NCBI GenBank assembly: GCA_038872135.1
Contig: JAVZGN010000021.1
Location: 1-15,577, forward strand
Direction: 5' to 3'
Source of the DNA: Candidatus Hadarchaeales archaeon
GTDB lineage: Archaea > Hadarchaeota > Hadarchaeia > Hadarchaeales > Hadarchaeaceae
DNA length: 15,577 bases
The notes below the pieces were generated by a model, which did no database searches, was not told the origin of the DNA, and saw only the letters and a list, made by a program, of their open reading frames with translations. Made by a program: the position numbers and the translations under genes. Positions 1-13,737 of the stretch are shown here, in pieces (the stretch's first letter is position 1; each line of letters begins with the position of its first letter).

Positions 1-1070
1 CGAATCTTTTCATCCTTCCCTATACTCGCCCCCCAGATCGCCTCCTCCATGAATTCGATTGTCTGATGATAGACTTTCTGGTCAACCGGGAAGGGAATGC
101 CATCCTTACCTCCATGGGCAAAAGAATACTTCACTGGATCTCTCCAAGACGGCGGCGCTCCATAGACAATCTCAGAAACGAGCGCCAATGCTCTTATGGC
201 TGCGGGGCCGATTCCTCTAATCCCCACAAGCTCCTCATAATTCTCAGGCCTTATCTCATACGCCCGCTTCAGCGCCGTAAGTGTCCTTGGCGACAGTTTC
301 GTTATCATGTGTCCGGTCGGCATCTTCAATTTCATCTCGGGTGATTTTCCTTCAGAAAACTCGTCGATGGTCCTCTGGCCGGCTTCTCGAAAGACAGAGA
401 GAAAATGCTGAGGCTTCTCATTCACCAAGTCCACGCTTACTTTCCTCGCCTCCTCACTCTCTTTCGCCGTCATGTCCAGCACAACAGCTTCCATCCTGTC
501 CCCGGCAATCCCAGAGTGGGGTTCATCAACGAAACTCCTCACCCTCTCCGAGAGCCAGTGATATCTCCTCGCAAGTCTCTCGTGCATTCCCTGTTGAACT
601 ACTGCCCACTCCCCATCCTCGCTGAGAACAAAGCAGTGGTGATAAAGCTGATATCCGTCCTGGATACATGCATTGTCCACTTTTGCCGCCATTCTGCTCG
701 CATACTTCAGCCTTTCTATTTCCTGCGATGAATAGCCAAAGGATTCCGCGACCCTTTCAATCTCATCTGGCGTTTTCTTCGAGATTTTCCCCTTTCCCCC
801 GCAAACAGCAATCCCAAGATCTTTTGGAATTCCCTCCTTCAGCGCTCCCATAGTCACGGTTGTCAGCCCGGAACTGTGCCAGTCGTAGCCCAGGACACAC
901 CCGAGAGCCTGGAAAAAGAAGGGATCTCCAAGCCTGTGCAGAAATTCCTTCCTTCCATATTCCTTGATTATGAGGGCGGAGATTTCTCCTCCAAGCTTCT
1001 TCATCATCGAAAAAAGCCAAGGGGGACATTTCCCCCCATGAAGTGGTAGCTCAGCAATTCCGGTTCTCAT
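1..1070 (-). CDS. DUF763 domain-containing protein (3' end runs off the window)
   Basis: Not in the ORF track. Manual minus-strand translation from ATG at 1070 gives an open frame to base 1: MRTGIAELPLHGGKCPPWLF...DPFFFQALGCVLGYDWHSSGLTT...QDGYQLYHH...WAVVQQGM...RRYHWLS...GIRGIGPAAIRALAL...KYSFAHGGKDGIPFPVD...GKDEKIR. These are the characteristic DUF763 motifs. Confidence 0.93.
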   Translation of the reverse strand, partial: MRTGIAELPLHGGKCPPWLFSMMKKLGGEISALIIKEYGRKEFLHRLGDPFFFQALGCVLGYDWHSSGLTTVTMGALKEGIPKDLGIAVCGGKGKISKKTPDEIERVAESFGYSSQEIERLKYASRMAAKVDNACIQDGYQLYHHCFVLSEDGEWAVVQQGMHERLARRYHWLSERVRSFVDEPHSGIAGDRMEAVVLDMTAKESEEARKVSVDLVNEKPQHFLSVFREAGQRTIDEFSEGKSPEMKLKMPTGHMITKLSPRTLTALKRAYEIRPENYEELVGIRGIGPAAIRALALVSEIVYGAPPSWRDPVKYSFAHGGKDGIPFPVDQKVYHQTIEFMEEAIWGASIGKDEKI

Positions 1071-1093
1071 CAATTAAAGATGGAGAAAAGAAG

Positions 1094-1100
1094 AATTAAA
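1094..1100 (-). promoter_or_regulatory. putative TATA box of the DUF763 gene (probably leaderless)
   Basis: TTTAATT on the minus strand 24-30 nt upstream of ATG 1070; no SD motif in between. Confidence 0.4.
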
Positions 1101-1127
1101 TCGAATGCTCGATACAAAGGCCATCAG

Positions 1128-1343
1128 TCACTTCAGCAAATAGTAGCCCGCTGCTTTCTCCCTTGCAACCCTCTTGGCATAGCCCTTGTTCACGAGCTCC
1201 ATGAGGGCGTTGTTGACCATCCCCTTCGGGAGCTTTGCGGCCCTCATGACATCATCTGCCGTTTTGAGGGTTTCAGGGTTCGTGCAGCCGAGCTTTTTAA
1301 GCGCATCGTACACCTTTTGAGCATTTGGGCTGAGTTCTGTCAT
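1128..1343 (-). CDS. small basic winged helix-turn-helix DNA-binding protein (71 aa)
   Basis: Pattern LSPNAQKVYDAL...TADDVMRAAKLPKGMVNNALMELVNKGYAKRV...GYYLL fits a three-helix plus beta-wing fold; 13 K/R versus 7 D/E; strong SD GAGGTGA at 1354-1348. Confidence 0.85.
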   Translation of the reverse strand: MTELSPNAQKVYDALKKLGCTNPETLKTADDVMRAAKLPKGMVNNALMELVNKGYAKRVAREKAAGYYLLK

Positions 1344-1377
1344 GGCATCACCTCTTCATCCACTCTCTCCTGCATTT

Positions 1378-2208
1378 TTAAAGCATTATCTCAAGGCTCA
1401 TGTCTACCGGCGGTGCTCTGAGAGTGATGTAGCTGGATGAAACTACATCAACTCCGGTGGCCGCAACCCTCCTGACATTGGAGAGATCTATCCCGCCAGA
1501 AGCCTCAAGGATAACTTTCTTCAACCCATGCTTTTTTAGCAACCTCACGGCCTTCTTCATCTCGCCAACACTCATGTTGTCTAGCATTACTATGTCTGCC
1601 CCAGCTTTGGCCGCCACCAGAGCATCTCTCGCATTCGTTACTTCGACTTCAACTTTTCCCTTCCGTGCAGATTTTGCCATCTTAACAGCTTTTTCAACGG
1701 AGCCGACGATCTTTATGTGATTGTCTTTTATCAAAATCTGATCACTCAAAGTATATCTGTGGGGACTTCCTCCACCAATTGCCACAGCCCTTTTATCAAA
1801 AACTGTGAGGAGGGGGGCAGTCTTTCTTGTTGCGGCCACGATTACCCTCAAGTTCCCCTTCCTCGCTTCTTCAACAAACTTCCTTGTGGTCGTGGCGATA
1901 CCGCTCATCCTCATGAGGAGGTTGAGGGCCGTCCTCTCACCTGCCAGGATCTTCCTTGCTTTTCCCGAGAGCTCCATTATTCTGATGTTTGGAGCAATCT
2001 CAGACCCGTCCCTCTTAAGAATTTTGACTTTTACTCCAAGCAGTCTGAAGAGAGCCGTCGCCTCTTTTACACCTGCTAGAACCCCATGCCCTTTTGCTAT
2101 TATCTCTGCCTTCGTCACCACATCATTTCCCACCAGCACTTCTGAGGTGACATCTCCTTTTCCAAGATCTTCTCTAACCATTTCCAGCAGCTTTTCTCGA
2201 ACATTCAT
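1378..2208 (-). CDS. nadC: nicotinate-nucleotide diphosphorylase (carboxylating) / quinolinate phosphoribosyltransferase
   Basis: Motifs EDLGKGDVTS, ERTALN..MSGIAT, TRKT, HR..LSD.ILIKDNH, EVEV, MLDN, EASGGI; directly downstream of nadX. Confidence 0.96.
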   Translation of the reverse strand: MNVREKLLEMVREDLGKGDVTSEVLVGNDVVTKAEIIAKGHGVLAGVKEATALFRLLGVKVKILKRDGSEIAPNIRIMELSGKARKILAGERTALNLLMRMSGIATTTRKFVEEARKGNLRVIVAATRKTAPLLTVFDKRAVAIGGGSPHRYTLSDQILIKDNHIKIVGSVEKAVKMAKSARKGKVEVEVTNARDALVAAKAGADIVMLDNMSVGEMKKAVRLLKKHGLKKVILEASGGIDLSNVRRVAATGVDVVSSSYITLRAPPVDMSLEIML

Positions 2209-2212
2209 TCCA

Positions 2213-3037
2213 TCAGCTCCCTAGCTGGAGGGGCTCCGTCATATTTCTAAGCATTCTTATGGCCGAAAGGGCCGCCAGATAGCTGGTTCTCGGGGACTCG
2301 GGAAATGGAAGGTTGTTTGCAACAGTGGTGATTTCTCCGCAATCTCCAATGATTTTGATTTCGTGGATGTTTCTTTTAATGGATGGATCTGCGACCACTC
2401 TCACCCTAGTTTTTTTCACCCCGATGGTTGCCAACGCCAGCGTGGCAGCAACATTGACGCTTGCTGGAAAAATCTTTACCGCTTCGCTTGCTGGTCCATC
2501 GAAAATCACCTTCGCTTTTTTGATTTTTGAAAGATCCAGTCTTTGGCGCCTGAGTTGTGATATCGAGGCGAAAGCCTTTGGGGGTTTCCTTGTAGTCAAA
2601 ACAACCTCTTTTATCTCCCCGACGGCTGCAGCCTTTGCTCCGTCAACTCCCACTATTGCACCGGATGGAACGAAGATTCTCCTCCCTTTCTTTTCTGCCA
2701 GAGAGAGGAGTCTCCTGAAAAGCTTCTCATCAGCGAGGGCCCCGACACTCATCACCATCAGATCCTTTCCGCTGTTGAGAATTTCCTCTGAATACTGCTC
2801 CACCGCCAGCTGTGAAGCCGCCTCAATTACCAGCTGAACCCCCCTGTCAGCGCAGATTTCTCTCACGCTTTTTGCAATCTTAGGTTTTGGTTCAAGTCTA
2901 TTCGATAGCAGAATAGCTTTTTCCTTCACGATATCATATACCCAAATGAGTTCTGCTTCTCCCGCTCTGCCTTCGCATATCGCCTTCGCCAGCGTTGAGC
3001 CAATCGCCCCACAACCGATAATTGCAATGCCCAGCAT
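2213..3037 (-). CDS. nadX: L-aspartate dehydrogenase (NAD biosynthesis)
   Basis: Rossmann motif IIGCGAIG, EAASQ, MSVGAL, PSGAIVG.D, TTRKPP, FP..VNVAATL, N.HEI, P..P.TS.LAALS; adjacent to nadC. Confidence 0.95.
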   Translation of the reverse strand: MLGIAIIGCGAIGSTLAKAICEGRAGEAELIWVYDIVKEKAILLSNRLEPKPKIAKSVREICADRGVQLVIEAASQLAVEQYSEEILNSGKDLMVMSVGALADEKLFRRLLSLAEKKGRRIFVPSGAIVGVDGAKAAAVGEIKEVVLTTRKPPKAFASISQLRRQRLDLSKIKKAKVIFDGPASEAVKIFPASVNVAATLALATIGVKKTRVRVVADPSIKRNIHEIKIIGDCGEITTVANNLPFPESPRTSYLAALSAIRMLRNMTEPLQLGS

Positions 3038-3165: not shown

Positions 3166-4008
3166 ATGTCAACGCCAATTCCACCTCCAGAACCAGCCAA
3201 GCCCACCGAGCAACCGATACCTCCCAAACCGCAACCTTCCAAACCAAAGTTGATCACCCATGCAATAATAATCGGCGTGGGTGTTCTGATTGTTGCCATT
3301 ATCGTTGCTACGTCATTTTTTCCAATAACTCCCCCCGTGATTGAAAGGAAGTGCACATTAAGTGGTTATGTGCTAGCCGGCCCCACAGCGGAGTACAGGG
3401 TTGTGAACGCCACGGTTGAGGTGAAAGTCGGCGGTCGTTCATACACAGCAGTCACGGACAGCTGGGGAGCATACAGTCTTCAGTTGCCAACAGGTAACTG
3501 GCAGGTGAGAATAAAGGTTGGGGATAACATTCGATACACCGAGAACATCTCGGTTCCAGGCAGCCAGAGGGAAATGAAAAAAGACATTTACAACGTTATT
3601 CCAGAGCTGGCTTCTGGTGATGGCGGTTCTATAGGAGATGTCCGCGTGGTTTATGTTCCGGCAACTTCCCGTTTGACGGGATATGTTTTTGCCGGGAGCG
3701 AGAGGAGCTACCGTCTCTCCGGTGCAATGGTTGAGATCGAGGTCAGAGGACAAACCTACGCAACAACAACCGGTGGAAGCGGAGAGTATACTGTTGAAGC
3801 CCCGGTGGGAACATGGACAGCAAGGGTAAAAATAGGTGGAAATGTCAAGTCATCTGACACCATAAATGTTTCCATCGGTCAGAACTACCTCATAAAAGAG
3901 TGGTACAACATCGCTCCGGAGCTCATCCCAGATAAATCTGCGGATGGCGTGCGATGCGTATACGTTGAGAGTGGATGGAGGGAGACCCAGAGGATCAAGT
4001 TGGGCTAG
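3166..4008 (+). CDS. membrane-anchored surface protein with two tandem carboxypeptidase-regulatory-like (prealbumin/Ig-like beta-sandwich) domains
   Basis: Pro-rich N-terminus, one hydrophobic helix (AIIIGVGVLIVAIIVATSFF), then two ~105-aa repeats with pattern L.GYV.AG....YR...A.VE..V.G..Y...T...G.Y....P.G.W..R.K.G.N. ATG 3166 preferred over TTG 3163. Confidence 0.8.
   Translation: MSTPIPPPEPAKPTEQPIPPKPQPSKPKLITHAIIIGVGVLIVAIIVATSFFPITPPVIERKCTLSGYVLAGPTAEYRVVNATVEVKVGGRSYTAVTDSWGAYSLQLPTGNWQVRIKVGDNIRYTENISVPGSQREMKKDIYNVIPELASGDGGSIGDVRVVYVPATSRLTGYVFAGSERSYRLSGAMVEIEVRGQTYATTTGGSGEYTVEAPVGTWTARVKIGGNVKSSDTINVSIGQNYLIKEWYNIAPELIPDKSADGVRCVYVESGWRETQRIKLG
3355..3969 (+). repeat. intragenic tandem domain duplication (units 3355-3669 and 3670-~3969)
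   Basis: Hand alignment of the two units gives 33 identical residues in 85 ungapped positions; offset 315 nt. Confidence 0.85.
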
Positions 4009-4427
4009 ATTATTTCCACGCCCCCCTTCTGACTGACCATCACAGTAAAGTTTCTTAGGGCCTTGCGACGCTCGAGATATTCCCTCCCCAGCGTTTCAGT
4101 AATCCTCCTTACCAGATCAGAATAGTTGCAGGAAATTTTTATCCCCCTTTTATCAGCCATTCGGAAAATCTCCTCGCACGCATGATAGACGTTGGTACCC
4201 CTAGGAAACTCCACTTTCACCGGCCAGTTCAAAGTTTTTACCAGCCGCAATGTATTTTTTGATTTCTCCACATTTTCTTTCGCTTTTTTGATCAACGCTC
4301 CAACGTTTGACCGACTCGTTCCCAGCTCAGAAGCAATTCTCGAAATGCTCATCCCACGATTTCTCATCATCAGGACTTCCAGCTGTCGTCTTGTTAGATG
4401 GGTCTTACTTATGTCAACCATTTTCAC
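4005..4427 (-). CDS. tfx: Tfx family DNA-binding transcriptional regulator
   Basis: N-terminal HTH THLTRRQLEVL.MR.RG.S...IA.ELGTSR.NV....KKA.EN.EKSKNTL followed by a Tfx-type C-terminal domain (VEFPRGTNVY...EEIF..ADK.GIKI). Start GTG 4427 or ATG 4421. Confidence 0.9.
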   Translation of the reverse strand: MKMVDISKTHLTRRQLEVLMMRNRGMSISRIASELGTSRSNVGALIKKAKENVEKSKNTLRLVKTLNWPVKVEFPRGTNVYHACEEIFRMADKRGIKISCNYSDLVRRITETLGREYLERRKALRNFTVMVSQKGGVEII

Positions 4428-4469
4428 TTCACAATAATAATTTATCCACCAATTTTATTTAAAATAGCG
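4428..4469. promoter_or_regulatory. divergent promoter region tfx / molybdate transporter operon
   Basis: 42-bp AT-rich spacer; TTTAAATA on the minus strand (4463-4456) suits tfx; AATTTAT near 4439-4445 suits a leaderless start at 4470. Confidence 0.55.
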
Positions 4470-5630
4470 ATGTTAGGGGGCCTAAGATTCGATAGAATGG
4501 AGCTTGCGGGGTCGCTGGGAGACCTTGGCACGATGCTCCCTCTCCTCATCCCTCTCATCTTGGTAAATGGACTCAACGCCACAGTAGCTTTCCTGATGAT
4601 CGGTCTTTTCTACATTTTTACAGGACTCTACTATAGAATTCCAATCCCTGTGCAGCCCCTGAAGGCAGTCGCCGTAATCGCCATCTCAACTGGGGCATCG
4701 GCTCGGCTGATAGCTTCCGCGGGAATAATCATGGGGATTTTCCTCCTTTTCCTTGCCTTGACTGGGTTGATAAAAGAAGTTGCCAGGGTTTTCTCAAAGC
4801 CAGTGGTAAGGGGAATTCAAGCAAGCCTCGGTCTAATGCTATTCATCAAAGGATTTCAGTACATGAGCGGAGAGCAGATGTTCCTCGGTGGAGAGAAGAT
4901 TTTCCTTGGATCGCTTCCTCTGAATCTTGTCATCGCGTTTTTGGGCCTGCTCATCGCTGGGTGTCTTCTGACCTCTAGGAAAATCCCAGCTGCCATTGTC
5001 CTAGTATTGGCGGGTCTAGCAATTGGGCTTGTGTTCAAACCCCCTGAGCTGAGGCCTAGCCCAACTGCTCCCGCCCCGATCCTCCCAAACATTTCTGAGC
5101 TTCAGACAGCTTTTTCCCTACTTTTCCTCCCTCAGGTTCCAGTCACAATTGGCAATGCAATTATTTCCACCTCAGATCTCGCGGAAAAATATTTTGGGAA
5201 AAAGGGAAAGAAGGCGACTCCTAAAGTCCTAGCTGCAAGCATGGGTGTGGCTAACTTGGCTTCAGGATTTGTAGGGGGAATGCCCATGTGCCACGGCGCT
5301 GGAGGATTGGCTGCCCACTACCGGTTTGGAGCAAGGAGTGGCGGAGCAAATTTGATAATTGGAAGCCTCTTTCTCATCGTCGGGTTAGTCTTCGGCTCCT
5401 CCGCAGTTTTCGTGCTCGGGGCAATTCCACTTTCAATCCTAGGCGTGTTGCTCACTATTACTGGGTTACAACTTGTGATTTTGTTACAGGATCTCTCCGC
5501 CTCTAAGGATCTCGCAGTTGCCGGAGTGATAATTGGGATAACGCTGGCCACAAACCAGCTGGCGGCAGGGTTTATCATCGGAATAATCGTGTATTATCTG
5601 ATGAGGTGGTGGCCGTGGTCAGGCCGGTGA
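4470..5630 (+). CDS. putative molybdate/sulfate transporter (MOT1-like MFS family)
   Basis: Signature ELAGSLGDLGT.LP, P.PVQPLKA.A..AI, PQ.P.TIGNA, GGMPMCHGAGGLAAHYRFGARSG; many hydrophobic helices. ATG 4470 preferred because the track start 4398 overlaps tfx and the promoter. Confidence 0.9.
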   Translation: MLGGLRFDRMELAGSLGDLGTMLPLLIPLILVNGLNATVAFLMIGLFYIFTGLYYRIPIPVQPLKAVAVIAISTGASARLIASAGIIMGIFLLFLALTGLIKEVARVFSKPVVRGIQASLGLMLFIKGFQYMSGEQMFLGGEKIFLGSLPLNLVIAFLGLLIAGCLLTSRKIPAAIVLVLAGLAIGLVFKPPELRPSPTAPAPILPNISELQTAFSLLFLPQVPVTIGNAIISTSDLAEKYFGKKGKKATPKVLAASMGVANLASGFVGGMPMCHGAGGLAAHYRFGARSGGANLIIGSLFLIVGLVFGSSAVFVLGAIPLSILGVLLTITGLQLVILLQDLSASKDLAVAGVIIGITLATNQLAAGFIIGIIVYYLMRWWPWSGR

Positions 5631-6604
5631 AAGCTGAAGAAGCGGTTGGAAAACCGCTCGCCCACGATATCGTGAAGTATGGTCCGGGACTTAAGGCGGT
5701 CCTCTTCAAAAAAGGCCACGTGGTCAGGGAAGAGGACGTGGAAAAATTGAAGGATGCGGGCAATTACATCGTCTACATCGAGGAAGGGGGGCTGGAGGGA
5801 GTGCATGAAGACGATGCAGCTTTAAGGATGGCTACGGCATGCATGGGGCAGAATCTTCTCCACACCAAGCCGAACAAGGGGAGGGTTGATCTCTTGGCGT
5901 CGATTTCGGGGGTGCTGAGGGTAAAAGAAGCCATCGTGAAAGAGGTTAATTTGGTAGAGGATTTTGTCTTGGCCACTCTTCCGGACTTTTCAGGCGTGAG
6001 GAAGGGTCAGAGGGTAGCTTCAATGAAAATAGTACCCCTCAGCGTTGATGAGGCTAAAATGAGAGAGGTTGAAGGCATTCTTTCTCGAGAGAAGCCGGTT
6101 GTGGAAGTTTGTGCTCCAGTCGTGAAAAGAATTGGAGCGATAATCACTGGAACAGAAATATTTGAGGGCCGGGTGAAAGATGCTTTCCTTCCGGTTCTCC
6201 AAAAAAAGCTCGGGGAGTTTGGGCTGCAGGTAGAGGAATCCTGCGTAATGCCGGATGATGAAAGAAAAATTGCAGAAAAGATAATAGAGTTCAAAAACAG
6301 CGGAAAAGAGTTGATCTTGGTGTGCGGGGGCATGGCCGTTGACATTAAAGATGTCACCGCGAGCGCCATTAAACTGGCCGGGGCGGATGTGGTTAGGAGA
6401 GGTATCCCAGCGTTTCCAGGCTCAATGATGATGATCTCCTACTTGGGCGATGTGGCGGTTGTTGGGCTCCCCGCCTGTGTCATCCCAGATGAAAGAACCA
6501 CATTTGACATCTTCCTGCCGAAGCTGCTGATGAAGCGCAAGATTGAAAGGGAAGAAATTGCAGACATTGCTCCAAGAGGGCTGGAAATCTTGAGCGGGGG
6601 CTGA
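5615..6604 (+). CDS. molybdopterin-binding protein (MoeA-like / MoCF_biosynth domain)
   Basis: AVG..LAHDI...FKKGH, VHEDDAA, GRV.L.A...G, IITGTEIFEGRVKDAF, GGM.VD..DVT..AI, G.PAFPGSM, VGLPAC, T.FD..LP. GTG 5615 preferred (SD GAGGTG at 5603-5608); overlaps the transporter stop. Confidence 0.88.
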   Translation: MVRPVKAEEAVGKPLAHDIVKYGPGLKAVLFKKGHVVREEDVEKLKDAGNYIVYIEEGGLEGVHEDDAALRMATACMGQNLLHTKPNKGRVDLLASISGVLRVKEAIVKEVNLVEDFVLATLPDFSGVRKGQRVASMKIVPLSVDEAKMREVEGILSREKPVVEVCAPVVKRIGAIITGTEIFEGRVKDAFLPVLQKKLGEFGLQVEESCVMPDDERKIAEKIIEFKNSGKELILVCGGMAVDIKDVTASAIKLAGADVVRRGIPAFPGSMMMISYLGDVAVVGLPACVIPDERTTFDIFLPKLLMKRKIEREEIADIAPRGLEILSGG

Positions 6605-6606
6605 GC

Positions 6607-7200
6607 TTGAAAAAACCTACCGTTGGGGTCGTTATTCTCGCCGCCGGGGAATCAAGTAGGATGGGCGAGCAAAAGCTGCTTCTTCCACTCATGGGACACA
6701 CCCTTCTCGAGCACGTCGTCGGTTCATTTAGAGGAATCGCTGATAGGATTATGGTGGTGCTTGGGCATAATCCGGAGGCTATTTTCCCCCTCCTCCAGAG
6801 GCTGAATGTTGAGTGGGTGGTGAATGAAGAGTATCAACTTGGAATGGTGACCTCTTTCAAGCGTGGGCTGGCAGAGCTTAGGAATTGTGATGCGGTGTTT
6901 CTGGCTCTTGGTGATCAGCCACTTGTGGACAAAACCTTTCTTTTAAAAGCAATCGATGCCTGGAGGGATGGAGCAAAAATAGTCTGCCCAGTTTTCAGGG
7001 GGAAAAAAGGCCACCCTGTTCTCTTTGATCAAAGCCTCTTTGGGGAAATTCTCAGCCTCGACGAAAATCAATTCATCCGTGATGTCATCCACAGGCATGC
7101 CGATCTCATGAAGGTCATCGAAGCCGGGAAATGGGCAATAACTGATGTAGACACACCAGAGGACTTTTTAAAACTCAAAAAAGAATTGGAAAAAAGCTAG
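6607..7200 (+). CDS. mocA: molybdenum cofactor cytidylyltransferase-like nucleotidyltransferase (MocA/YgfJ type)
   Basis: ILAAGESSRMG..KLLL, GM.TS...G, LGDQP, GHPVLF, DVDTPED; the GHPVLF motif fits the MocA branch rather than MobA. Confidence 0.82.
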   Translation: MKKPTVGVVILAAGESSRMGEQKLLLPLMGHTLLEHVVGSFRGIADRIMVVLGHNPEAIFPLLQRLNVEWVVNEEYQLGMVTSFKRGLAELRNCDAVFLALGDQPLVDKTFLLKAIDAWRDGAKIVCPVFRGKKGHPVLFDQSLFGEILSLDENQFIRDVIHRHADLMKVIEAGKWAITDVDTPEDFLKLKKELEKS

Positions 7201-8288
7201 GCGTATCTTATTGCTCTCGTTGGGCAGACCGAAACACAAAGCCCGCACATGTAGCACCGCGCTTTGTCAACTTGGGCAGATTTTCCAACAACATGAATAG
7301 CTCCATATGGGCAGTGTTTTTCGCAGAGGCCGCAGGCAGTGCATTTTGAGACAAGGACCTCCACCGGTTCCGCTGTTAGTCTGGGTTCAGCGGGAAGATG
7401 TGGAAGCGCTTTTCCCCTTATTTCCGAAATCGAGTTGTAGTTTTTTGCCCGCATGAACTTTGCTATTTCATCCGCGATTATTCCATAGATGTTCGGCCCC
7501 CGAATGATGGCTGCTGTGCAGACCTGAACTGCAGAGGCTCCAGCCATGATAAATTCCACAGCATCTCTCCCAGAAGAGATCCCGCCCACTCCAATGACCG
7601 GAATGCTCACAGTTCTCGCGATATCCGCCACACATCTAACGGCAAGAGGTTTAATCGATGGCCCAGATAACCATCCATACCCACTTGCGCTCCCCAGCAT
7701 AGGCATCGCGTTTTCTATGTCTATGCTCAAACAAGGGCCCAAAGTGTTTATGGCGACTATTCCATCCGCCCCTGCGCTTTCCGCAGCTTTAGCAAACTCC
7801 TTTATGTCTAATACATTTGGGCTAAGCTTCACAAATACCGGGACATCCACAACTTCTTTAGCGGCTTTTGTGGCTTCAATCACTGGCGTTGGATCATTTC
7901 CGAGATAGTGAGTCGAGAGCTCCAGGGCATCCGCTCCAGCCTCAACAACTTTTGGCGCAATCTCCCTGATCTCCGCGGCCCTGTAGCCTATGCTGGCTAT
8001 CAGCGGCAACCCGGCCTTTTTGGCTTTGGGGTACTCCACCTTCAACCATTGCTCAAGGGGAAGATCTGTCCAGAGCTCAGCGTTCAGAAGGCTATCTTTC
8101 ACTTTGACTATGCAAGGGCGCGGGACCTTTGCGGGCTGAACACTAACAGTCTTCGCAACGAGAGCACCGGCCCCTCCTTCCGCTACCTTTAAAAGAGCCT
8201 CTCCATCCATCACATTCGGGCCAGCGGCCGGCATCACAGGATTTCTCAGTTTAAGACCGCAGAGTTCCACACTGAGATCGACCATCAT
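7197..8288 (-). CDS. dihydroorotate/dihydropyrimidine dehydrogenase-like FMN oxidoreductase with C-terminal 2x[4Fe-4S] domain; non-canonical active site
   Basis: Class 1 DHOD barrel motifs (LRNP, AKT, VKLSPN, INT, LSG..IKP.A, IGVGGI, AGASAVQV) plus CTACGLC...CP and CYMCGLC...CP; ELSTHY replaces the ELNxSCP catalytic loop. Confidence 0.88.
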   Translation of the reverse strand: MMVDLSVELCGLKLRNPVMPAAGPNVMDGEALLKVAEGGAGALVAKTVSVQPAKVPRPCIVKVKDSLLNAELWTDLPLEQWLKVEYPKAKKAGLPLIASIGYRAAEIREIAPKVVEAGADALELSTHYLGNDPTPVIEATKAAKEVVDVPVFVKLSPNVLDIKEFAKAAESAGADGIVAINTLGPCLSIDIENAMPMLGSASGYGWLSGPSIKPLAVRCVADIARTVSIPVIGVGGISSGRDAVEFIMAGASAVQVCTAAIIRGPNIYGIIADEIAKFMRAKNYNSISEIRGKALPHLPAEPRLTAEPVEVLVSKCTACGLCEKHCPYGAIHVVGKSAQVDKARCYMCGLCVSVCPTRAIRYA

Positions 8289-9625
8289 CTACCACCCCTC
8301 TGCAGCTCCTGCCAGAGCTTTTCGGCAGCTCTTCTCGCAATCGCAGCCGCTTGCGATTCATCAATGGTAAGCAATTTTTTCTCTTTTACCACAACTTTCC
8401 CCCCGACAATAACAGTTTCCACATCATCCCCATCCACGGTGTTCACCAAATGTCCAAGAACTGTATCTGGTCTTATAGGCGTTGGAGCGAGAGTTGGGTT
8501 GATAATGATGAGGTCAGCGAGCTTCCCGATTTCAATCGATCCAACCTCATTTTCCAGCCCATAGAGCTCAGCCCCTTTTATCGTGGCCATCTCCAGAACC
8601 TCTCGCGGAGAAATTACCCGAGGATCTCTAGTAGAAACCTTGTGAATGAGATAGGCTGCCCGGATATTCTCAAACCCATCAAAGATGTATCCATCATTTC
8701 CAAGCCCAACTGGAATCCCTCGCTGGAGCATCTTCGGAACGGGGGCAACCCCAACAGCGTTCAGCATGTTGCTCATTGGATTGTGGGCCACTTTGGCACC
8801 GCTCTTCTGAATTATGTCTAGCTCCTCATCAGAGACATTCACACAGTGGGCGAGCACAACATCTGGACCGAGGAAGCCAACCTCCTTCAACCTTTCAACA
8901 GTTCTCATTCCATATCTTTCATAATTGTGATAGACGTCCACAAGCCCCTCAGAGGTGTGAATGGTCATCGGAACTTTATATTTGCTGGCTAATTGCCTCG
9001 CATACGCCAAAAGCTCATCAGAAACGGTGAAAGACGCATGAACACATATCATCCCCATGATCCTGGAAATCCTCTTTTTCTTCAATTTCTTTATGAATCT
9101 TTCATTCTCCCTCATCCCGCTCGCTCCCTCCGCCCTGCTGTGCCTTTCGGTGGCTTCGAATGAAATTATTCCTCGAATCCCGGACTGTTCGACCGCCGCC
9201 GCAATTTTGTCTAGCACCCCGGCGATGGATTTTGGCCCAGAGTAGGTGTCTGCGAAAAGAGTTGTCCCGGTTTTTAAAAACTCGACGCAGGAGATTAGGG
9301 CGCTGGCATAGGCGTCATCTTTTTTCATCGTCTCATCCATCGGCCACCAGACCCTCTGGAGAATCTGTGAAAAATCAGTAGGTGGCTGTATTTTGAGGGG
9401 AGCACCGCGAAGGAGCATCCCGTAAAGATGTGTGTGGGCGCAGATCAGGCCTGGCATGACTATTTTTCCCTTCGCATCAATTACCTCATCCGCTTTTGGG
9501 GTCCTGCCTTTTTTCCCAATCGACTGAATTCTTCCATCCTCAACAGCTATTGAACCACCCTGAATTATCCTGCAGTTTTTGTCCATCGTGACTATACATC
9601 CGTTTTTTATCACAAGGTCAACCAT
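8285..9625 (-). CDS. ssnA: SsnA-like metal-dependent amidohydrolase
   Basis: PGLICAHTHLY, PPTDF..IL..VWW..D, HASFTVSD, H.SEG, HNP.SNM.NAVG, GLGNDG, G..ADL; SD AGGAG at 9633-9629; its stop overlaps the start of the flavoprotein gene. Confidence 0.8.
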   Translation of the reverse strand: MVDLVIKNGCIVTMDKNCRIIQGGSIAVEDGRIQSIGKKGRTPKADEVIDAKGKIVMPGLICAHTHLYGMLLRGAPLKIQPPTDFSQILQRVWWPMDETMKKDDAYASALISCVEFLKTGTTLFADTYSGPKSIAGVLDKIAAAVEQSGIRGIISFEATERHSRAEGASGMRENERFIKKLKKKRISRIMGMICVHASFTVSDELLAYARQLASKYKVPMTIHTSEGLVDVYHNYERYGMRTVERLKEVGFLGPDVVLAHCVNVSDEELDIIQKSGAKVAHNPMSNMLNAVGVAPVPKMLQRGIPVGLGNDGYIFDGFENIRAAYLIHKVSTRDPRVISPREVLEMATIKGAELYGLENEVGSIEIGKLADLIIINPTLAPTPIRPDTVLGHLVNTVDGDDVETVIVGGKVVVKEKKLLTIDESQAAAIARRAAEKLWQELQRGGR

Positions 9626-9709
9626 TCTCTCCTATAAAGGTAGAAAACCATAATTTAAAACTTGACATCTCAACACTGGTGTTATTAATCGCTGAAAAAA
9701 ATTGTAGTG
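9626..9709. promoter_or_regulatory. divergent promoter region ssnA-like / cyclic amidohydrolase
   Basis: TTTTAAAT on the minus strand (9660-9653), TTATTAAT on the plus strand (9682-9689), with an AACAC-TG-GTGTT inverted repeat (9672-9683) between them. Confidence 0.5.
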
Positions 9710-11041
9710 ATGCATGATCTTGTAATCAGAAATGGGAAAATGATTGTCAAAGGAAAGCTTGTGAGCGGCGAAATCGCTATTGATGATGGGATCATCAGGA
9801 GGATTGCTGTAAGTGGTGTTGAAAAAGGCGATGTTGAGATAAACGCCCATGGGAGATATATCCTCCCGGGAGCTATCGATGTTCACGCGCACATCTTTGA
9901 CCGGAGATTTCAGCACAGAGAATCGTTTGACAGCGGGACGATGGCTGCAGCAGCTGGGGGGGTCACCACAGTAATCATAATGCCTTTAGACACTCCAGTC
10001 CTCACCGTCTCCGAAGTAAAAAAACTGATAGAGCTTGGTGAAAAGAATAGTTTGATAGATTTTGCCATTCACGCAGGCAACATGACTGCCGAGGCCATCA
10101 GAGAAGTTAAAAAGCTCGTTTCTGTTGGAGTTGCATCTTTCAAAACATTTACATGCTCCCCATATCTTTTGGAGAAGGGGGAAATCGAGCGATTGATGGA
10201 TGAGATAAAAAAAGCGAATGGAATTCTGTTTGTTCACGCCGAGGATGAAGATGAGCTGAGACGAGGGCTCGAAAGGGTGAGAGGTAGAAAAGACCCGCTG
10301 GCCCACCACGAGGCGAGAACAGTGAGGGCCGAGGTGAAGGCTGTAAAAGAAGTTATTCGGATGAGTAGATATCATCGCTGTAAGACGCACTTCGCACACA
10401 TCACTTCTGCAGAGGCCTGTGAGGTGATAAAAAAGGGTAAGCGAAAAATCATCACAGCCGAAACCTGTACCCACTACCTGATTTTCACTAGGGAGGATGT
10501 TAAGACTCATGGACCCTATCTGAGGGTCAATCCCTCCATAAAAACAAAAAAAGACAGGGCGGCATTGTGGAGGGCTCTCTCGGAAGGCACGCTAGATCTC
10601 GTGGCCACTGACCATGCTCCAGGCACTGTGGATGAAAAAGAAGTCGGATGGGACGACATATGGAAGGCCCAGATTGGGATCCCCGGAGTAGAGAACCTTC
10701 TCCCGCTGATGCTAGAAGAAGGAGTGTGCAAGAAAAGGATATCTCTCCGGCGGCTCATTGAATGTTTGTCGATTGCACCGGCAAAAATTTTTGGCCTATA
10801 TCCACGAAAAGGGGCATTGCTCGAAGGCTCAGATGCTGATTTGGTGATAGTGGATCTCAAGAAAAAAACTAAGATAACCGCGGATAAACTCCACTACAAA
10901 GTCGGCTGGACGCCATACGCCGGGCTAAGGTCAGTCGCTCCACCAGAGTATACCATTTCGCGCGGAGAGGTGGTTTCAGCCGGCGGGGAGATCATTGGAA
11001 GAGTTGGACGCGGGAAATTTCTATCAAGAGCGTGCTCGTGA
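9710..11041 (+). CDS. cyclic amidohydrolase (allantoinase/hydantoinase/dihydroorotase superfamily), allantoinase-like
   Basis: LPGAIDVHAH, AAAAGGVTT...MPL, FKTF (carboxy-Lys), VHAED, HFAHIT, AETC.HYL, ATDHAP, PAK.FGL...KG....GSDAD. No Arg two residues after the HxH, which argues against PyrC. ATG 9710 (GTG 9707 alternative). Confidence 0.9.
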   Translation: MHDLVIRNGKMIVKGKLVSGEIAIDDGIIRRIAVSGVEKGDVEINAHGRYILPGAIDVHAHIFDRRFQHRESFDSGTMAAAAGGVTTVIIMPLDTPVLTVSEVKKLIELGEKNSLIDFAIHAGNMTAEAIREVKKLVSVGVASFKTFTCSPYLLEKGEIERLMDEIKKANGILFVHAEDEDELRRGLERVRGRKDPLAHHEARTVRAEVKAVKEVIRMSRYHRCKTHFAHITSAEACEVIKKGKRKIITAETCTHYLIFTREDVKTHGPYLRVNPSIKTKKDRAALWRALSEGTLDLVATDHAPGTVDEKEVGWDDIWKAQIGIPGVENLLPLMLEEGVCKKRISLRRLIECLSIAPAKIFGLYPRKGALLEGSDADLVIVDLKKKTKITADKLHYKVGWTPYAGLRSVAPPEYTISRGEVVSAGGEIIGRVGRGKFLSRACS

Positions 11042-11043
11042 TT

Positions 11044-12288
11044 CTATCTTTTCAACGCGGAGATTTTCAGAGCAACTATTGCATCCCGAACATCTGAAAA
11101 CACAGGAGTCCTTACCCTTGAAATTTCTGTGATATCACCGGCTTTTGCGCCAAGAGTGACTAGGACCACTGGCTTCTCCTTGGATTTCTCGCATTTCTCC
11201 ACAACTTTTTTTAAATCATCTCTCCTAAGTTTTCCCGAACCTGTTGCCACCACAACTAAAAGGGCATCGATTTCTTTTTCCTCCAAAACTCTGTCCGCCG
11301 CCACCTGGAAATCTTCGCCAGTGGCTTCCTCCCCGAGGTTCACAAAACCATCGACTTTAACCTCTTTCTTGAATTTTTCAAAAGCTTCTTGAGGGATAGT
11401 GGCCAATGTCATCTCGCTTTTTTCTATCCATTTCCTGGCAAGCAGTCCCGCAGACTTAGAATTAGTCACGACGGCAATTTTTCTACCCCTCATGGGCCTG
11501 CCACCGACCAACATCTTTGCTCCACAAAACATCTCTTCCAATGTCTCCACTGGAATTCCTCCAGCCTGCTTTATTGCCGAGACAAAAATTTTGTTTTCTA
11601 CCGATGCACTGAAGACCAAAACCGGCTTTTCCACCGAGATGCTTTTGATGAACTCGATATCCTTTCTCTTCAGGATATTTTTCAGGACTAGGCCGATGAT
11701 TTCAGTTTCTTTATCCTGTTTGAGAAATTCCAGTATTTGCGTCAGCTGCACTCCAGTCTCGCCCAGGCACACGAATTTACTCATGCCAACTCCGCATCTC
11801 TCCCCCCTTTCGGCAGCCATCTCCGCGAGAAGGGGGTCATCTGCAACAACGGCCATCTTCCCCCTCTGGAAATTCCCAGAAATCGTCGCCACCAGCCCAT
11901 TTCCGGTGTTCACCACCCCAAAAGAGGCAGGCCCCACGAGAACCCCGCGTTTGGAAAAAGATAATAGCATCTGGTTAGTTTTTTCCCTTCCTTTAGACAG
12001 GAGCAGCACACATGTGGATTTCTGAAGGATTTTTTTGATGTTTTTTTCGAGGATTTCTGGCGGGAGCAGGATCATGACCAGCATGTTCTTTTTGATCGAT
12101 GAGAGGGGCTCGGCCCCCGCAAGCTTTCCCTGCACATCCACGACATGAACCTTTCCCTTAAAGCCTGAGAGCCGGTCCTTCAGTAGAAAAAAACGCGTGG
12201 AATAAACCTCATCCTCGCCGCGAAGCTCCGACGCCCCGACAACGGCAACTTCTCTTGGCTCAAACAGATTTTTAAGCTCAGGCTTCAT
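11044..12288 (-). CDS. degenerate acyl-CoA synthetase (ADP-forming) alpha-like subunit, lacking the catalytic His loop
   Basis: LFEP..VAVVGAS, LVGP..FG..N, KPV, AIKQAG, G..IAVVTNS, EIDALLV, KPVV give the ACD-alpha architecture; SQSG, GN and SHTG motifs are absent; ORF intact and coupled to the beta gene by an ATGA overlap. Confidence 0.78.
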   Translation of the reverse strand: MKPELKNLFEPREVAVVGASELRGEDEVYSTRFFLLKDRLSGFKGKVHVVDVQGKLAGAEPLSSIKKNMLVMILLPPEILEKNIKKILQKSTCVLLLSKGREKTNQMLLSFSKRGVLVGPASFGVVNTGNGLVATISGNFQRGKMAVVADDPLLAEMAAERGERCGVGMSKFVCLGETGVQLTQILEFLKQDKETEIIGLVLKNILKRKDIEFIKSISVEKPVLVFSASVENKIFVSAIKQAGGIPVETLEEMFCGAKMLVGGRPMRGRKIAVVTNSKSAGLLARKWIEKSEMTLATIPQEAFEKFKKEVKVDGFVNLGEEATGEDFQVAADRVLEEKEIDALLVVVATGSGKLRRDDLKKVVEKCEKSKEKPVVLVTLGAKAGDITEISRVRTPVFSDVRDAIVALKISALKR

Positions 12289-13004
12289 TCGCCGCCATCC
12301 CCGACAAAGATTCTGGCGTCAACCGCAACCGCTCCCTTTCCAGCAGCAAACACAAAAAGTGGATTGATGTCTAGCTCTTGAATCTGCGGGAACTCGGCCA
12401 CCAGGATACCCACCTTTTCTATCACCTCGGCCACGGCCAGAATGTCTGCGGGAGGCTCTCCCCTTATCCCAGCGAGCACCGGATATCCTTTGATCTCCTT
12501 GATCATTTCAACAGCCTCATCTTTGGTGAGGGGTGCCAGCCTGAAACTCGTATCTTTTAGCACTTCAACCCAGATACCCCCAAGCCCAAACATAACAGTG
12601 GGACCAAATGACTTATCTTGCAAACCACCGACAATCGCCTCCCTGCCGGGGGGGACGTGCTCTTGGACCGTGACACCAAGAATCCTAGCATTGGGACTGT
12701 AGCTCTTGGCGCTGTTCATAATATCTTCAAAAGCTTTTCTCACCTCCATCTCCCCACCTATCCCCACCCTCACTCCGCCAGCGTCGCTTTTGTGAATAAT
12801 ATCTGGGGACGCTATTTTCATGACAACAGGGTAATGGATTTCTCTCGCTATCCTGACAGCCTCATCGGGAGTTGTAGCAAGCTCAGTTCGATTGACCGGG
12901 ATTCCAGCCAGACTCAAAACTTTTTTGGCATCAATCTCTCCCAGTTCTTTTCTACCACTTTTCTTTGCACCATCCAGAATTTCCGCTATTTTTGATTTCT
13001 CCAT
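12285..13004 (-). CDS. acdB: acetate/acyl-CoA ligase (ADP-forming) beta subunit, ATP-grasp
   Basis: YPVVMKIASPDIIHKSDAGGV, VQE, E.IVG...D..FGP.VMFGLGGIWVEVLKD.SFR.AP, L.G.RG..P.D, ELDINPL, AVDARI. Confidence 0.93.
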   Translation of the reverse strand: MEKSKIAEILDGAKKSGRKELGEIDAKKVLSLAGIPVNRTELATTPDEAVRIAREIHYPVVMKIASPDIIHKSDAGGVRVGIGGEMEVRKAFEDIMNSAKSYSPNARILGVTVQEHVPPGREAIVGGLQDKSFGPTVMFGLGGIWVEVLKDTSFRLAPLTKDEAVEMIKEIKGYPVLAGIRGEPPADILAVAEVIEKVGILVAEFPQIQELDINPLFVFAAGKGAVAVDARIFVGDGGE

Positions 13005-13263: not shown

Positions 13264-13737
13264 CTAGCCTCCAGGAATCTGATCAAGCGAATTTATCGTC
13301 ACATCCCCGTCATATAATCTCCCGGCTCTAACACTGACGATTGTAACCCTTATAGATTTTCCTATCTCAAGATTGGCCCCTCGGAGCTGAACCTCGGCAT
13401 ATGCCCAATCGCTCTGTCTGAACCTCTGGGGATTCTCAAATGTCCAGCAATAGAATTCATTGTCGATTCCTCTTATCGGCTCTCTCGCCCACCCTCTTAT
13501 GAAATCTGTGGTTGGTTTTGAAACTTCAAAAGAAAGAGTTTCTCCCCCAATGTGCTGGATGTGAAATCTAACGACATTTTCATTGACCAACCCAGCATAA
13601 ACGGCCACTTCCACATATCTGGGCCTGAAAGGAGAATAATATTGGCTTAACCATACAGCTATTGGAGCCGCAGCCGCCACTGTTATCCCCACAAGAAGGA
13701 TTGTAGCAACAATCGGAGAGATTCCCTCCCCATTCAT
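13264..13737 (-). CDS. archaeal type IV pilin-like protein (class III signal peptide)
   Basis: MNGEG|ISPIVATILLVGITVAAAAPIAVWL N-terminus and the I.H.GGE motif typical of archaeal pilins; ATGA overlap with the upstream gene. Confidence 0.88.
   Translation of the reverse strand: MNGEGISPIVATILLVGITVAAAAPIAVWLSQYYSPFRPRYVEVAVYAGLVNENVVRFHIQHIGGETLSFEVSKPTTDFIRGWAREPIRGIDNEFYCWTFENPQRFRQSDWAYAEVQLRGANLEIGKSIRVTIVSVRAGRLYDGDVTINSLDQIPGG

Follow-up and report, generated by a model that had tools for sequence, protein, structure and literature searches.

Gut bacteria can break down uric acid without oxygen by a reductive pathway that was worked out only in 2025, in bacteria only, and the DNA presented here raises the question of whether archaea possess a version of their own. 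The stretch analyzed (hereafter the window) is the entire 15,577-nucleotide contig JAVZGN010000021.1, contig C21 of a 1.08-Mb assembly of 34 contigs from an uncultured Candidatus Hadarchaeales archaeon of hot springs (GCA_038872135.1; 91% complete, 0.09% contamination), and its proteins have their nearest relatives in Hadarchaeota metagenome-assembled genomes (MAGs). Between positions 4005 and 11041 it encodes an SsnA-like amidohydrolase, a reductase, a cyclic amidohydrolase (hyd) and a set of molybdenum genes, from which a reading of the DNA without database searches (the sequence-only reading) had proposed an equivalent of the bacterial purine-degradation cluster. We consider it reasonably probable that this region encodes the central ring-opening enzymes of the reductive uric-acid (2,8-dioxopurine) pathway in an archaeal variant of the ferredoxin type, accompanied by a molybdenum-supply operon. 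Homology and linkage were observed directly; from these and from the genomic context we infer the substrate and every enzymatic step. The idea of an archaeal reductive-purine core thus found support, with three amendments: the reductase appears to be of the UacX and not the YgfK type, hyd is an orthologue of neither HyuA nor AllB, and BLAST and Pfam searches of the genome recovered no equivalent of YgeX or YgeY.

In E. coli and Clostridium sporogenes, the reductive urate pathway comprises XdhD-YgfM or XdhAC, YgfK, SsnA, HyuA, YgeW, YqeA, YgeY as well as YgeX, and 2,8-dioxopurine has been named “yanthine” (PMC12507026; 10.1101/2025.04.24.650524). Urate is reduced to 2,8-dioxopurine by XdhD, named XdhAC/DOPDH in C. 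sporogenes; the hydantoin is then opened by HyuA, removal of the ureido groups falls to YgeW with YqeA and to YgeY, and YgeX yields pyruvate (10.1101/2025.05.19.654654). The YgfK product was detectable only in combination with SsnA (Li et al., PMC12507026 / 10.1101/2025.05.19.654654). In C. difficile, the place of YgfK is taken by UacX, a protein of PF01180 that has an FMN site, lacks a FAD domain and is presumed to use ferredoxin as donor, and UacY stands in for YgeW/YqeA (10.1101/2025.05.19.654654). Archaea are mentioned nowhere in the main texts of PMC12507026 and 10.1101/2025.04.24.650524, as far as these are cited here, and among the papers listed by literature searches none concerns an archaeal version, although the supplements (similarity-network and MAG tables) could contain archaeal entries.

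The list of open reading frames (ORFs), together with family searches, placed all genes of 4005–11041 where the sequence-only reading had put them. The features referred to below, with protein lengths in amino acids (aa), are the following.

4005–4427, minus strand: Tfx-family DNA-binding protein (140 aa; TIGR00721, 112.8 bits, cut-off 60.25)
4398–5630, plus strand: putative molybdate transporter of the MOT1 (MFS_MOT1) family (410 aa; PF16983, 175.2 bits in two stretches, cut-off 30)
5606–6604, plus strand: MoCF_biosynth-domain protein (332 aa; PF00994, 68.9 bits, residues 178–307)
6607–7200, plus strand: MocA-like NTP transferase (197 aa; top match TIGR03310, 165 bits, under its cut-off of 186.45; PF12804, 139 bits)
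7197–8288, minus strand: putative UacX-type reductase of the DHO_dh fold (363 aa; PF01180, 156 bits, plus Fer4)
8285–9625, minus strand: SsnA-like amidohydrolase (446 aa; PRK07203, 395 bits; TIGR03314, 376.3 bits)
9626–9706, no strand: intergenic region (81 bp) that separates ssnA-uacX from the divergent cyclic amidohydrolase gene
9707–11041, plus strand: cyclic amidohydrolase, hyd, of the hydantoinase/dihydroorotase/allantoinase superfamily (444 aa)
11044–13004, minus strand: acdA-like (414 aa, divergent) and acdB (239 aa) genes for subunits of an ADP-forming acyl-CoA synthetase (ACD; PF13549, 279.6 bits for acdB)

The reductase, the SsnA relative and the cyclic amidohydrolase

The reductase consists of a PF01180 barrel (residues 5–279) and a single C-terminal domain for two [4Fe-4S] clusters, with two CxxCxxCxxxC motifs at residues 316 and 345 and no FAD/NAD domain. 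Its top NCBIfam score is to PRK07259, a dihydroorotate dehydrogenase (DHOD) model (240 bits), with PreA at 216 bits. It is 49% identical to the 371-aa reductase of a Bacillota locus (L128) that holds a complete bacterial uricolytic cluster in the order ygeY-ygeW-yqeA-ygeX-ssnA-uacX-uacT-xdh-hyuA, and 37% identical to the canonical PyrD of a genome of the same genus. In a 28-row tree, the UacX types (15 archaeal rows, L128 and one further bacterial row) split from the canonical PyrD and PreA types with 98/99 support, the PreA types forming a clade separate from the window protein. Under closer inspection of the alignment, the cysteine-containing active-site loop, which reads NLSCPN or NLSCPH in canonical PyrD and NFSCPQ in E. 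coli PreA, gives way in the UacX types to a shorter ELSTH-Y-G-D segment, which is ELSTH-YLGNDP in the window. This cysteine loop is absent from all 116 full-length bacterial proteins (358–372 aa) that we took from the best 120 matches to the L128 reductase, and 105 of the 116 have ELSTH exactly. To our knowledge, all DHOD and dihydropyrimidine dehydrogenase (DPD) enzymes studied use an active-site cysteine. Our standard of comparison is the L128 cluster with these 116 family members and not C. difficile UacX itself, and the ELSTH loop is our own, unpublished criterion; judged in this way, the window protein appears to be of the UacX type, a type of about 362 aa, and the counterpart of the C. 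difficile YgfK replacement, and we propose that it acts as a ferredoxin-dependent ring reductase. YgfK itself (TIGR03315), a PreT-like plus PreA-like fusion of about 1030 aa, was ruled out by the length of the protein, 363 aa, and by a BLAST search with E. coli YgfK that found no match in the whole genome at E ≤ 1e-4.

The ssnA stop and the reductase start overlap in the four nucleotides ATGA, with a GGGGTGG stretch before them, an arrangement that is consistent with translational coupling. The sequence-only reading had described an SsnA-like amidohydrolase coupled to a DHOD-like FMN/Fe-S reductase, a description borne out by this overlap, the PF01180 barrel and the two 4Fe-4S motifs. SsnA models are the two best NCBIfam matches of the amidohydrolase, both under cut-off (444 bits for PRK07203 and 455.5 for TIGR03314). 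Among the 120 matches listed, a protein search with E. coli SsnA gave only near-identical enterobacterial proteins; a diverse bacterial set was drawn from one bacterial phylum, in which 45 of 201 genomes have a protein over the TIGR03314 cut-off. Compared with E. coli SsnA, the window protein is the better match for 25 of 31 such bacterial SsnA proteins (33–39% identity). A careful 41-row tree, which omits three long-branch rows and redundant rows, sets 27 SsnA-type rows apart from 14 deaminase-like rows with 100/100 support, and a 78-row quick tree gives the same split with 100 in the Shimodaira-Hasegawa-like approximate likelihood ratio test (SH-aLRT). In both trees bacterial SsnA falls on one side together with the archaeal clade and a further archaeal paralogue, and the deaminase side holds the PRK06038-type deaminase encoded elsewhere in the genome (629 bits, above 609), the second deaminase-like paralogue of the genome, other such paralogues and E. 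coli GuaD. As had been supposed, the amidohydrolase therefore groups with bacterial SsnA and not with paralogues of the methylthioadenosine/S-adenosylhomocysteine (MTA/SAH) type or the guanine-deaminase-like type. The metal and acid-base residues (H64 and H66 of the HxH motif, H223, E226, H260 and D311) are invariant across all alignment rows. These observations suggest that the protein is an SsnA relative of a distinct archaeal subfamily, and we propose that it opens the six-membered ring once this has been reduced. In the first locus scan bacteria were represented only by L059 and L062, which turned out not to be SsnA clusters.

The product of hyd stays under the cut-offs of the models for dihydroorotase (DHOase; PRK02382, 349 against 452 bits), allantoinase (PRK06189, 317.7 against 631; TIGR03178, 301.8 against 357.85) and D-hydantoinase (TIGR02033, 302.4 against 393.25), and the sole model that it passes is the broad pyrC_multi domain model TIGR00857 (295 bits, cut-off 279). 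Its best PDB match is the L-hydantoinase 1GKR at 258.7 bits, followed by D-hydantoinase (214), allantoinase (211) and DHOase (178), and it is 27% identical to E. coli HyuA and 30% to AllB. In a 21-row tree, hyd forms its own clade (90/94), apart from canonical Hadarchaeal PyrC, represented by G205, G204 and G212 (99/96), and from HyuA (100/97). The under-cut-off scores and the separate clade ruled out HyuA, AllB and housekeeping PyrC as its identity; hyd seems to stand in HyuA's place by position only, and is proposed to open the hydantoin ring.

Molybdenum genes and candidate partners elsewhere in the genome

The divergent cyclic amidohydrolase and, abutting the pair, the molybdate transporter, MoCF protein and MocA-like gene are all present as the sequence-only reading had it. 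The latter three form a tight co-directional set with gaps or overlaps of a few bases, and tfx is divergent from it. As listed, the ORFs overlap by 30 bp (tfx/MOT1) and 25 bp (MOT1/MoCF gene), so that the start codons of these three genes are uncertain, and the true MOT1 start is probably downstream of 4398. The MOT1 protein has no NCBIfam family match. In the MoCF-domain protein, the N-terminal 175 residues are without a family match; a PDB search gave just weak domain matches (FAD synthase, CinA and MogA), the nearest Atlas clusters are PF00994 proteins of Bacillota of about 324–339 aa, and the gene adjoins mocA in L028 and L057. The MocA-like protein, a putative molybdenum cofactor cytidylyltransferase, is 27% identical to E. 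coli MocA, and its N-terminal motif reads LAAGESSRMG where E. coli MocA has ITAAGLSSRMG; we take this AAG-type motif to bear on CTP specificity. MocA makes the molybdopterin cytosine dinucleotide (MCD) cofactor for xanthine-oxidase-family (XO-family) enzymes, and in loci of Hadarchaeota and Bathyarchaeia mocA stands next to xdhC, to xdh genes or to both. Family membership and context thus suggest that the operon supplies cofactor to XO-family hydroxylases; the genome also encodes seven paralogues of the aldehyde oxidoreductase (AOR) family, which need a pterin cofactor. Finally, tfx adjoins mocA in L013–L015 and L042, and Methanothermobacter Tfx, which responds to tungstate and binds at the operon for molybdenum formylmethanofuran dehydrogenase, has been linked to the molybdate-dependent expression of fmdECB (PMC3087415); by analogy, Tfx is a candidate molybdate/tungstate-responsive regulator here.

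Where, then, are the other enzymes that such a pathway would use? BLAST searches with E. coli proteins and family searches were run over the whole genome. Contig C22 encodes an XdhD-like large subunit (C22:4503–6857) with Fe-S and FAD subunits beside it, unlinked to the window in the assembly. It is 40% identical to E. coli XdhD (551 bits, versus 460 bits to XdhA) and has a loop with a Glu aligned with XdhD E606, the residue singled out by Li et al. (10.1101/2025.05.19.654654), which is absent from XdhA and from the enzyme on C3. The latter belongs to an XdhA-like trio (large subunit C3:40295–42685), and an XdhC-like protein is encoded on C24. The genome therefore contains the candidates for MCD-dependent hydroxylases that had been looked for outside the window: two XO-family hydroxylases, each with FAD and Fe-S subunits, plus XdhC. 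Neither XO-family large subunit carries the form I CO-dehydrogenase motif, the segments AFRGYG and AYRGFG being found instead, and YqeC was not found in the genome. As to the AOR family, of the paralogues at C22:2576–4513 and C15:4642–6904 one lies directly against the XdhD-like genes and one against a YgfS-like gene. On C17 (C17:15767–18217; L079:5767–8217), an 816-aa ORF has a full AOR-like region, which matches the C22 AOR at 33% identity over 628 residues, and at its C terminus a 3-hexulose-6-phosphate synthase domain; it is either a real fusion or two in-frame genes.

Carbamate kinase is encoded on C18 (TIGR00746, 376 bits, above 358), and two genes away lies a carbamoyltransferase that fits no curated family. 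A second such enzyme is on C1, and a normal ornithine carbamoyltransferase is on C3. The C18 and C1 proteins are under all cut-offs and reach 145–158 bits with the YgeW model (cut-off 453). Of the genes listed for a genome-wide search, those of the xdh type, XdhC and carbamate kinase were recovered, YgeX and YgeY were not, and YgeW is represented only by these model scores. Of the five PALP proteins in the genome (two ThrC-like, CysK, TrpB and TrpB-like), the ThrC-like one with the lower thrC score adjoins the XdhA-like genes on C3. It was rejected as a YgeX homologue on its threonine synthase score (344 bits, above 303), and this ThrC-like paralogue is instead a candidate YgeX replacement. 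Its orthologues, at 59–71% identity, occur in 15 of 40 relatives; within 1.5-kb flanks of these 15 loci, the next-door genes include a C18-type carbamoyltransferase in six, an AOR and YgfS-like pair in five and an SsnA paralogue in one. A further set on C20 (C20:4145–7959; L134) consists of an FdrA/AllF-like gene (473 bits, above 433), an AllG-like gene (PF06545, 302 bits) and then an unassigned 260-aa ORF, and corresponds in type to the oxamate carbamoyltransferase with which E. coli degrades allantoin anaerobically.

On the far side of hyd, the acdA-like gene matches just PF13607 (50.8 bits) and TIGR02717 (139 bits, cut-off 567). Its product is 26% identical to the canonical alpha subunit on contig C4 and 27–36% identical to the products of same-position alpha genes of relatives, whose acdB is 57–68% identical; acdB (ATP-grasp_5) is the sole ACD beta subunit found in the genome, and acdB-acdA precede hyd in 25 loci. 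Whether these genes belong to the cluster is uncertain: they could close a purine-to-acetate fermentation, or merely be syntenic with ssnA-uacX-hyd. The outer flanks have no evident tie to the cluster; they contain DUF763, nadC and nadX (NAD synthesis from aspartate) at 3–3037, with a CarboxypepD_reg gene on that side too, and at 13264–15409 genes for a protein like archaeal type IV pilins, for a KaiC-like ATPase and for an ATPase of the MinD/ParA kind. Among the runs listed by a sequencing-run search none is of RNA; those of DNA are hot-spring metagenomes from three studies, and only one contains at least half of the sampled words.

Conservation and competing readings

Across 66 Hadarchaeota genomes searched, the window's own (G000) included, an SsnA-like match of at least 65% identity is present in 38 of the 65 others, six of the 38 being cut by contig ends. 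We compared 58 archaeal loci, 29 of them labeled Hadarchaeota; in these 29, uacX is adjacent to ssnA in 28 and hyd in 25, and the divergent arrangement of hyd and ssnA-uacX is kept in 25. The core triad ssnA-uacX-hyd is conserved in most Hadarchaeota, in line with the linkage that the sequence-only reading had predicted, and since the arrangement recurs in dozens of related genomes it is not a product of chance. Adjacency of hyd and ssnA extends to Bathyarchaeia and to one Nitrososphaeria locus. Several loci link the triad genes to molybdenum enzymes: L013–L015 and L042 continue with xdhC-mocA-tfx, L057 reads ssnA-uacX-xdhC-mocA-MoCF-xdhL-M-S, and the Bathyarchaeia loci run xdhC-mocA-hyd-ssnA followed by a Pyr_redox_2 flavoprotein (mocA and xdhC in 6 of 10), with xanthine dehydrogenase (XDH) genes and a major facilitator superfamily (MFS) transporter upstream in L036, L039 and L040; triad genes thus stand beside xdh, xdhC and mocA in one Hadarchaeota locus and three Bathyarchaeia loci. 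Others link them to candidate genes for later steps: L034 brings together GltD-like, PreA-like, carbamate kinase, HyuA-like, two carbamoyltransferase and ssnA genes, and L007 a C1-type carbamoyltransferase, carbamate kinase and the triad. AOR-family enzymes, often with a YgfS-like Fe-S protein, recur near ssnA, uacX, ThrC-like and carbamoyltransferase genes in several archaeal phyla (L030, L031, L034, L007 and L147–L151).

Several findings weigh against a urate pathway built around this triad. The hydroxylases, carbamate kinase and carbamoyltransferases lie on contigs other than the window's, and their link to it therefore rests on the relatives. Neither BLAST nor Pfam searches of the genome gave a YgeX or YgeY equivalent, no M20 peptidase being over cut-off, and neither an NCS2-type purine transporter nor SelD was found in this 91%-complete genome. 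The SsnA-like, MocA-like and hydantoinase-like proteins are all under curated equivalog cut-offs, and hyd, in its separate clade, is not a HyuA orthologue. The outgroup of the SsnA trees is small and consists of these genomes' paralogues and E. coli GuaD, which are deaminases by family assignment, and of the 52 columns specific to bacterial SsnA the archaeal clade keeps 18 and does not keep 34. The SsnA-like gene lies among housekeeping genes in 10 to 11 of 14 Nitrososphaerota-labeled loci. Lastly, many Hadarchaeota (L003, L004, L008, L010–L012, L016, L018, L023, L024, L029 and L048) carry a second set downstream of uacX on the opposite strand, made up of an SsnA paralogue that is nearer to bacterial SsnA than the window type is, a PreA-like gene and a GltD/PreT-like gene. 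This set seems to amount to a split YgfK, giving two reductase-hydrolase pairs side by side, so that the substrate of the window-type set may be another heterocycle.

The second set is thus the chief reason for doubt about the substrate, and it leads to the main rival explanation, namely that the triad performs the same chemistry on another oxidized N-heterocycle delivered by a molybdenum or AOR-type hydroxylase, such as xanthine, 6,8-dioxopurine, an oxidized pteridine or a pyridine or pyrimidine derivative, rather than on 2,8-dioxopurine. That the archaeal SsnA-like clade is a separate subfamily, with its 18 of 52 columns and its scores under the SsnA cut-offs, fits this explanation; the second, more bacterial-like SsnA with an adjacent split YgfK-like pair suggests a division of labor, and the neighbors in L030, L031 and L034 are AOR-family enzymes and not XDH. 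Yet the second set was not found in the window's own genome, which has the window-type set only and nevertheless encodes the XdhD-like enzyme with the E606-equivalent loop. The UacX-type protein shares its 49% identity with the reductase of a complete bacterial urate cluster, and XDH genes stand beside window-type ssnA and hyd in L036, L039 and L040 and beside ssnA and uacX in L057. On balance, we regard a different heterocycle as rather unlikely.

A reductive catabolism of pyrimidines or orotate would make the reductase PydAc-like or an orotate reductase, hyd a dihydropyrimidinase or dihydroorotase, and the SsnA-like protein a feeder deaminase. The top family matches are indeed to DHOD and DHOase, at the scores given above, the PreA score is 216 bits, UacX has been described as a PydA homologue (10.1101/2025.05.19.654654), and ferredoxin-driven reduction is known from PydAc, which reduces uracil with reduced ferredoxin (PMC7332683). 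However, PydAc retains two ferredoxin domains, theoretically with four clusters (PMC7332683), where the window protein has one, and the window protein is missing the cysteine loop; the genome yielded no M20 enzyme of the beta-ureidopropionase type, such a pathway would have no use for linkage with mocA, xdhC and xdh, and the SsnA-like protein stands apart from the deaminase-like rows in the tree. We consider this explanation improbable.

It could also be argued that the genes are unrelated neighbors, the SsnA-like protein being a salvage deaminase of nucleosides or bases whose adjacency has no functional meaning. Most Nitrososphaerota-labeled homologues would agree with this: in L046–L051, L060 and L061 (Nitrososphaerales and Conexivisphaerales MAGs), the SsnA-like gene (52–56% identity) sits between FEN1, PCMT, Toprim, eRF1 and class I tRNA synthetase genes, and no purine-related neighbors were found there. 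Given the 4-nt overlap with the reductase gene, the pair kept in 28 of 29 Hadarchaeota-labeled loci, the pairing of SsnA with a DHOD-fold reductase in bacteria as well, and the two deaminase-type paralogues that the genome already has, an accidental neighborhood appears very improbable.

Housekeeping pyrimidine biosynthesis, with the window genes as the organism's PyrD and PyrC, had to be weighed seriously because neither a second PF01180 match over cut-off nor a second DHOase-like ORF was found in the genome, and because hyd passes pyrC_multi. No pyrB, pyrE or pyrF over cut-off was found in it either, its sole OMPdecase-family match being a hexulose-phosphate synthase domain. Among 31 related genomes, DHO_dh matches fall into a PyrD class of about 190–240 bits and a second class of about 105–155 bits and about 365 aa, and at least 11 of the 31 have both. 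Canonical pyrD, pyrC and pyrB lie within about 5 kb in G205 and G204 (same genus) and in G212 (same family), each of which carries an additional hyd-type DHOase match, and in G205 and G212 the full hyd-ssnA-uacX cluster was confirmed away from the pyr locus. Since the canonical genes form one locus in relatives, their absence here may be a single gap, a locus of about 5 kb falling in the unassembled 9%; the missing pyrB, pyrC, pyrD, pyrE and pyrF may thus reflect such a gap, or the genes may really have been lost. In G203, which is of the same genus and 90% complete, just the paralogues are seen as well. With relatives, two of them of the same genus, holding a canonical pyrD-pyrC-pyrB locus in addition to hyd-ssnA-uacX, and with trees that separate the window proteins from the canonical ones, we rejected the housekeeping explanation as scarcely credible.

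The proposed route and its known counterparts

Under the favored reading, a reductive urate pathway of the ferredoxin type, MOT1 would import molybdate, and the MoCF-domain protein, MocA and the XdhC-like chaperone (C24) would deliver the cytosine-dinucleotide cofactor, possibly under Tfx control. The XdhA-like enzyme (C3) would then convert hypoxanthine and xanthine to urate, from which the XdhD-like enzyme (C22) would take off the 6-oxo group to give 2,8-dioxopurine. Electrons from reduced ferredoxin would pass through the two 4Fe-4S clusters of the UacX-type flavoprotein to reduce the purine core, and the coupled SsnA-type hydrolase would open the six-membered ring at once, so pulling an unfavorable reduction forward. 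The divergently encoded cyclic amidohydrolase would open the hydantoin ring to 2,3-diureidopropionate, the carbamoyltransferases (C18 and C1) and carbamate kinase (C18) would turn the ureido groups into ATP, and the ThrC-like enzyme beside the XdhA-like genes may release pyruvate. It is tempting to speculate further that Hadarchaeota and Bathyarchaeia ferment purines by a reductive urate pathway of their own, in which UacX carries out ferredoxin-driven ring reduction, two carbamoyltransferases phosphorolyse both ureido groups of 2,3-diureidopropionate and a ThrC-like enzyme replaces YgeX; this fuller scheme is tentative, and on the doubtful side. Double phosphorolysis, if it occurs, would yield two ATP via carbamate kinase versus one in E. 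coli.

If correct, an archaeal version would carry the pathway into a second domain of life and point to a concrete, testable substrate for the uncultured Hadarchaeota and Bathyarchaeia of hot springs and the subsurface, namely the purines of dead biomass; the purines of buried nucleic acids would be an energy source for common subsurface archaea. It would also touch on carbon monoxide: coxM and coxS are listed as CO-oxidation genes of a Hadarchaeota MAG (PMC10681998), and the resemblance of both XO-family large subunits here to E. coli XdhA and XdhD bears on claims of CO oxidation in Hadarchaeota. The “cox” annotations in such MAGs may concern XdhA/XdhD-like enzymes of this kind, in which case the genes behind the CO-oxidation inference would partly be purine hydroxylases. 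The locus further offers heat-adapted enzymes for study, above all the UacX family without the active-site cysteine, for which the Methods of Li et al. give UacX assay conditions (10.1101/2025.05.19.654654), and its MOT1-type transporter in a prokaryotic cofactor operon is a lead for archaeal molybdate uptake.

How does the locus compare with systems already known? On the molybdenum side, it shares with the MCD maturation set a MocA-like transferase whose gene adjoins XdhC and XDH genes in relatives, and with Methanothermobacter a tfx beside molybdenum-use genes; it departs from the known MCD set in that the MocA-like protein is under the TIGR03310 cut-off and the transporter is of the MOT1 type and not ModABC. 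With the E. coli anaerobic allantoin route (AllB, AllFGH, that is FdrA/YlbE/YlbF, and carbamate kinase) the genome has FdrA-like, AllG-like and carbamate kinase genes in common, whereas BLAST found no AllC or AllE, hyd is far under the allantoinase cut-offs, and the C20 FdrA/AllG genes are unlinked to the window. The Pyd pathway (PydAc; PreT/PreA in E. coli) resembles it in following an FMN barrel of the DHOD/DPD fold and Fe-S clusters with a cyclic amidohydrolase, but the window reductase has one ferredoxin domain, unlike PydAc, and lacks the cysteine loop of PreA and PyrD.

As in the reductive urate pathway, the window pairs an SsnA-family hydrolase with a flavin/Fe-S ring reductase, with a cyclic amidohydrolase alongside, and the genome's set includes MocA-like and XdhC-like proteins, XO-family hydroxylases, carbamate kinase and relatives of the knotted-type carbamoyltransferases. 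What differs from the E. coli and C. sporogenes pathway is the archaeal host, a 363-aa reductase of the UacX type in place of YgfK, a hyd that is not the HyuA orthologue, and the spread of the archaeal genes over at least six contigs. The UacX variant of C. difficile and other bacteria resembles the window in its reductase architecture, its ELSTH loop, its gene order of ssnA followed by uacX and its presumed electron donor, ferredoxin.

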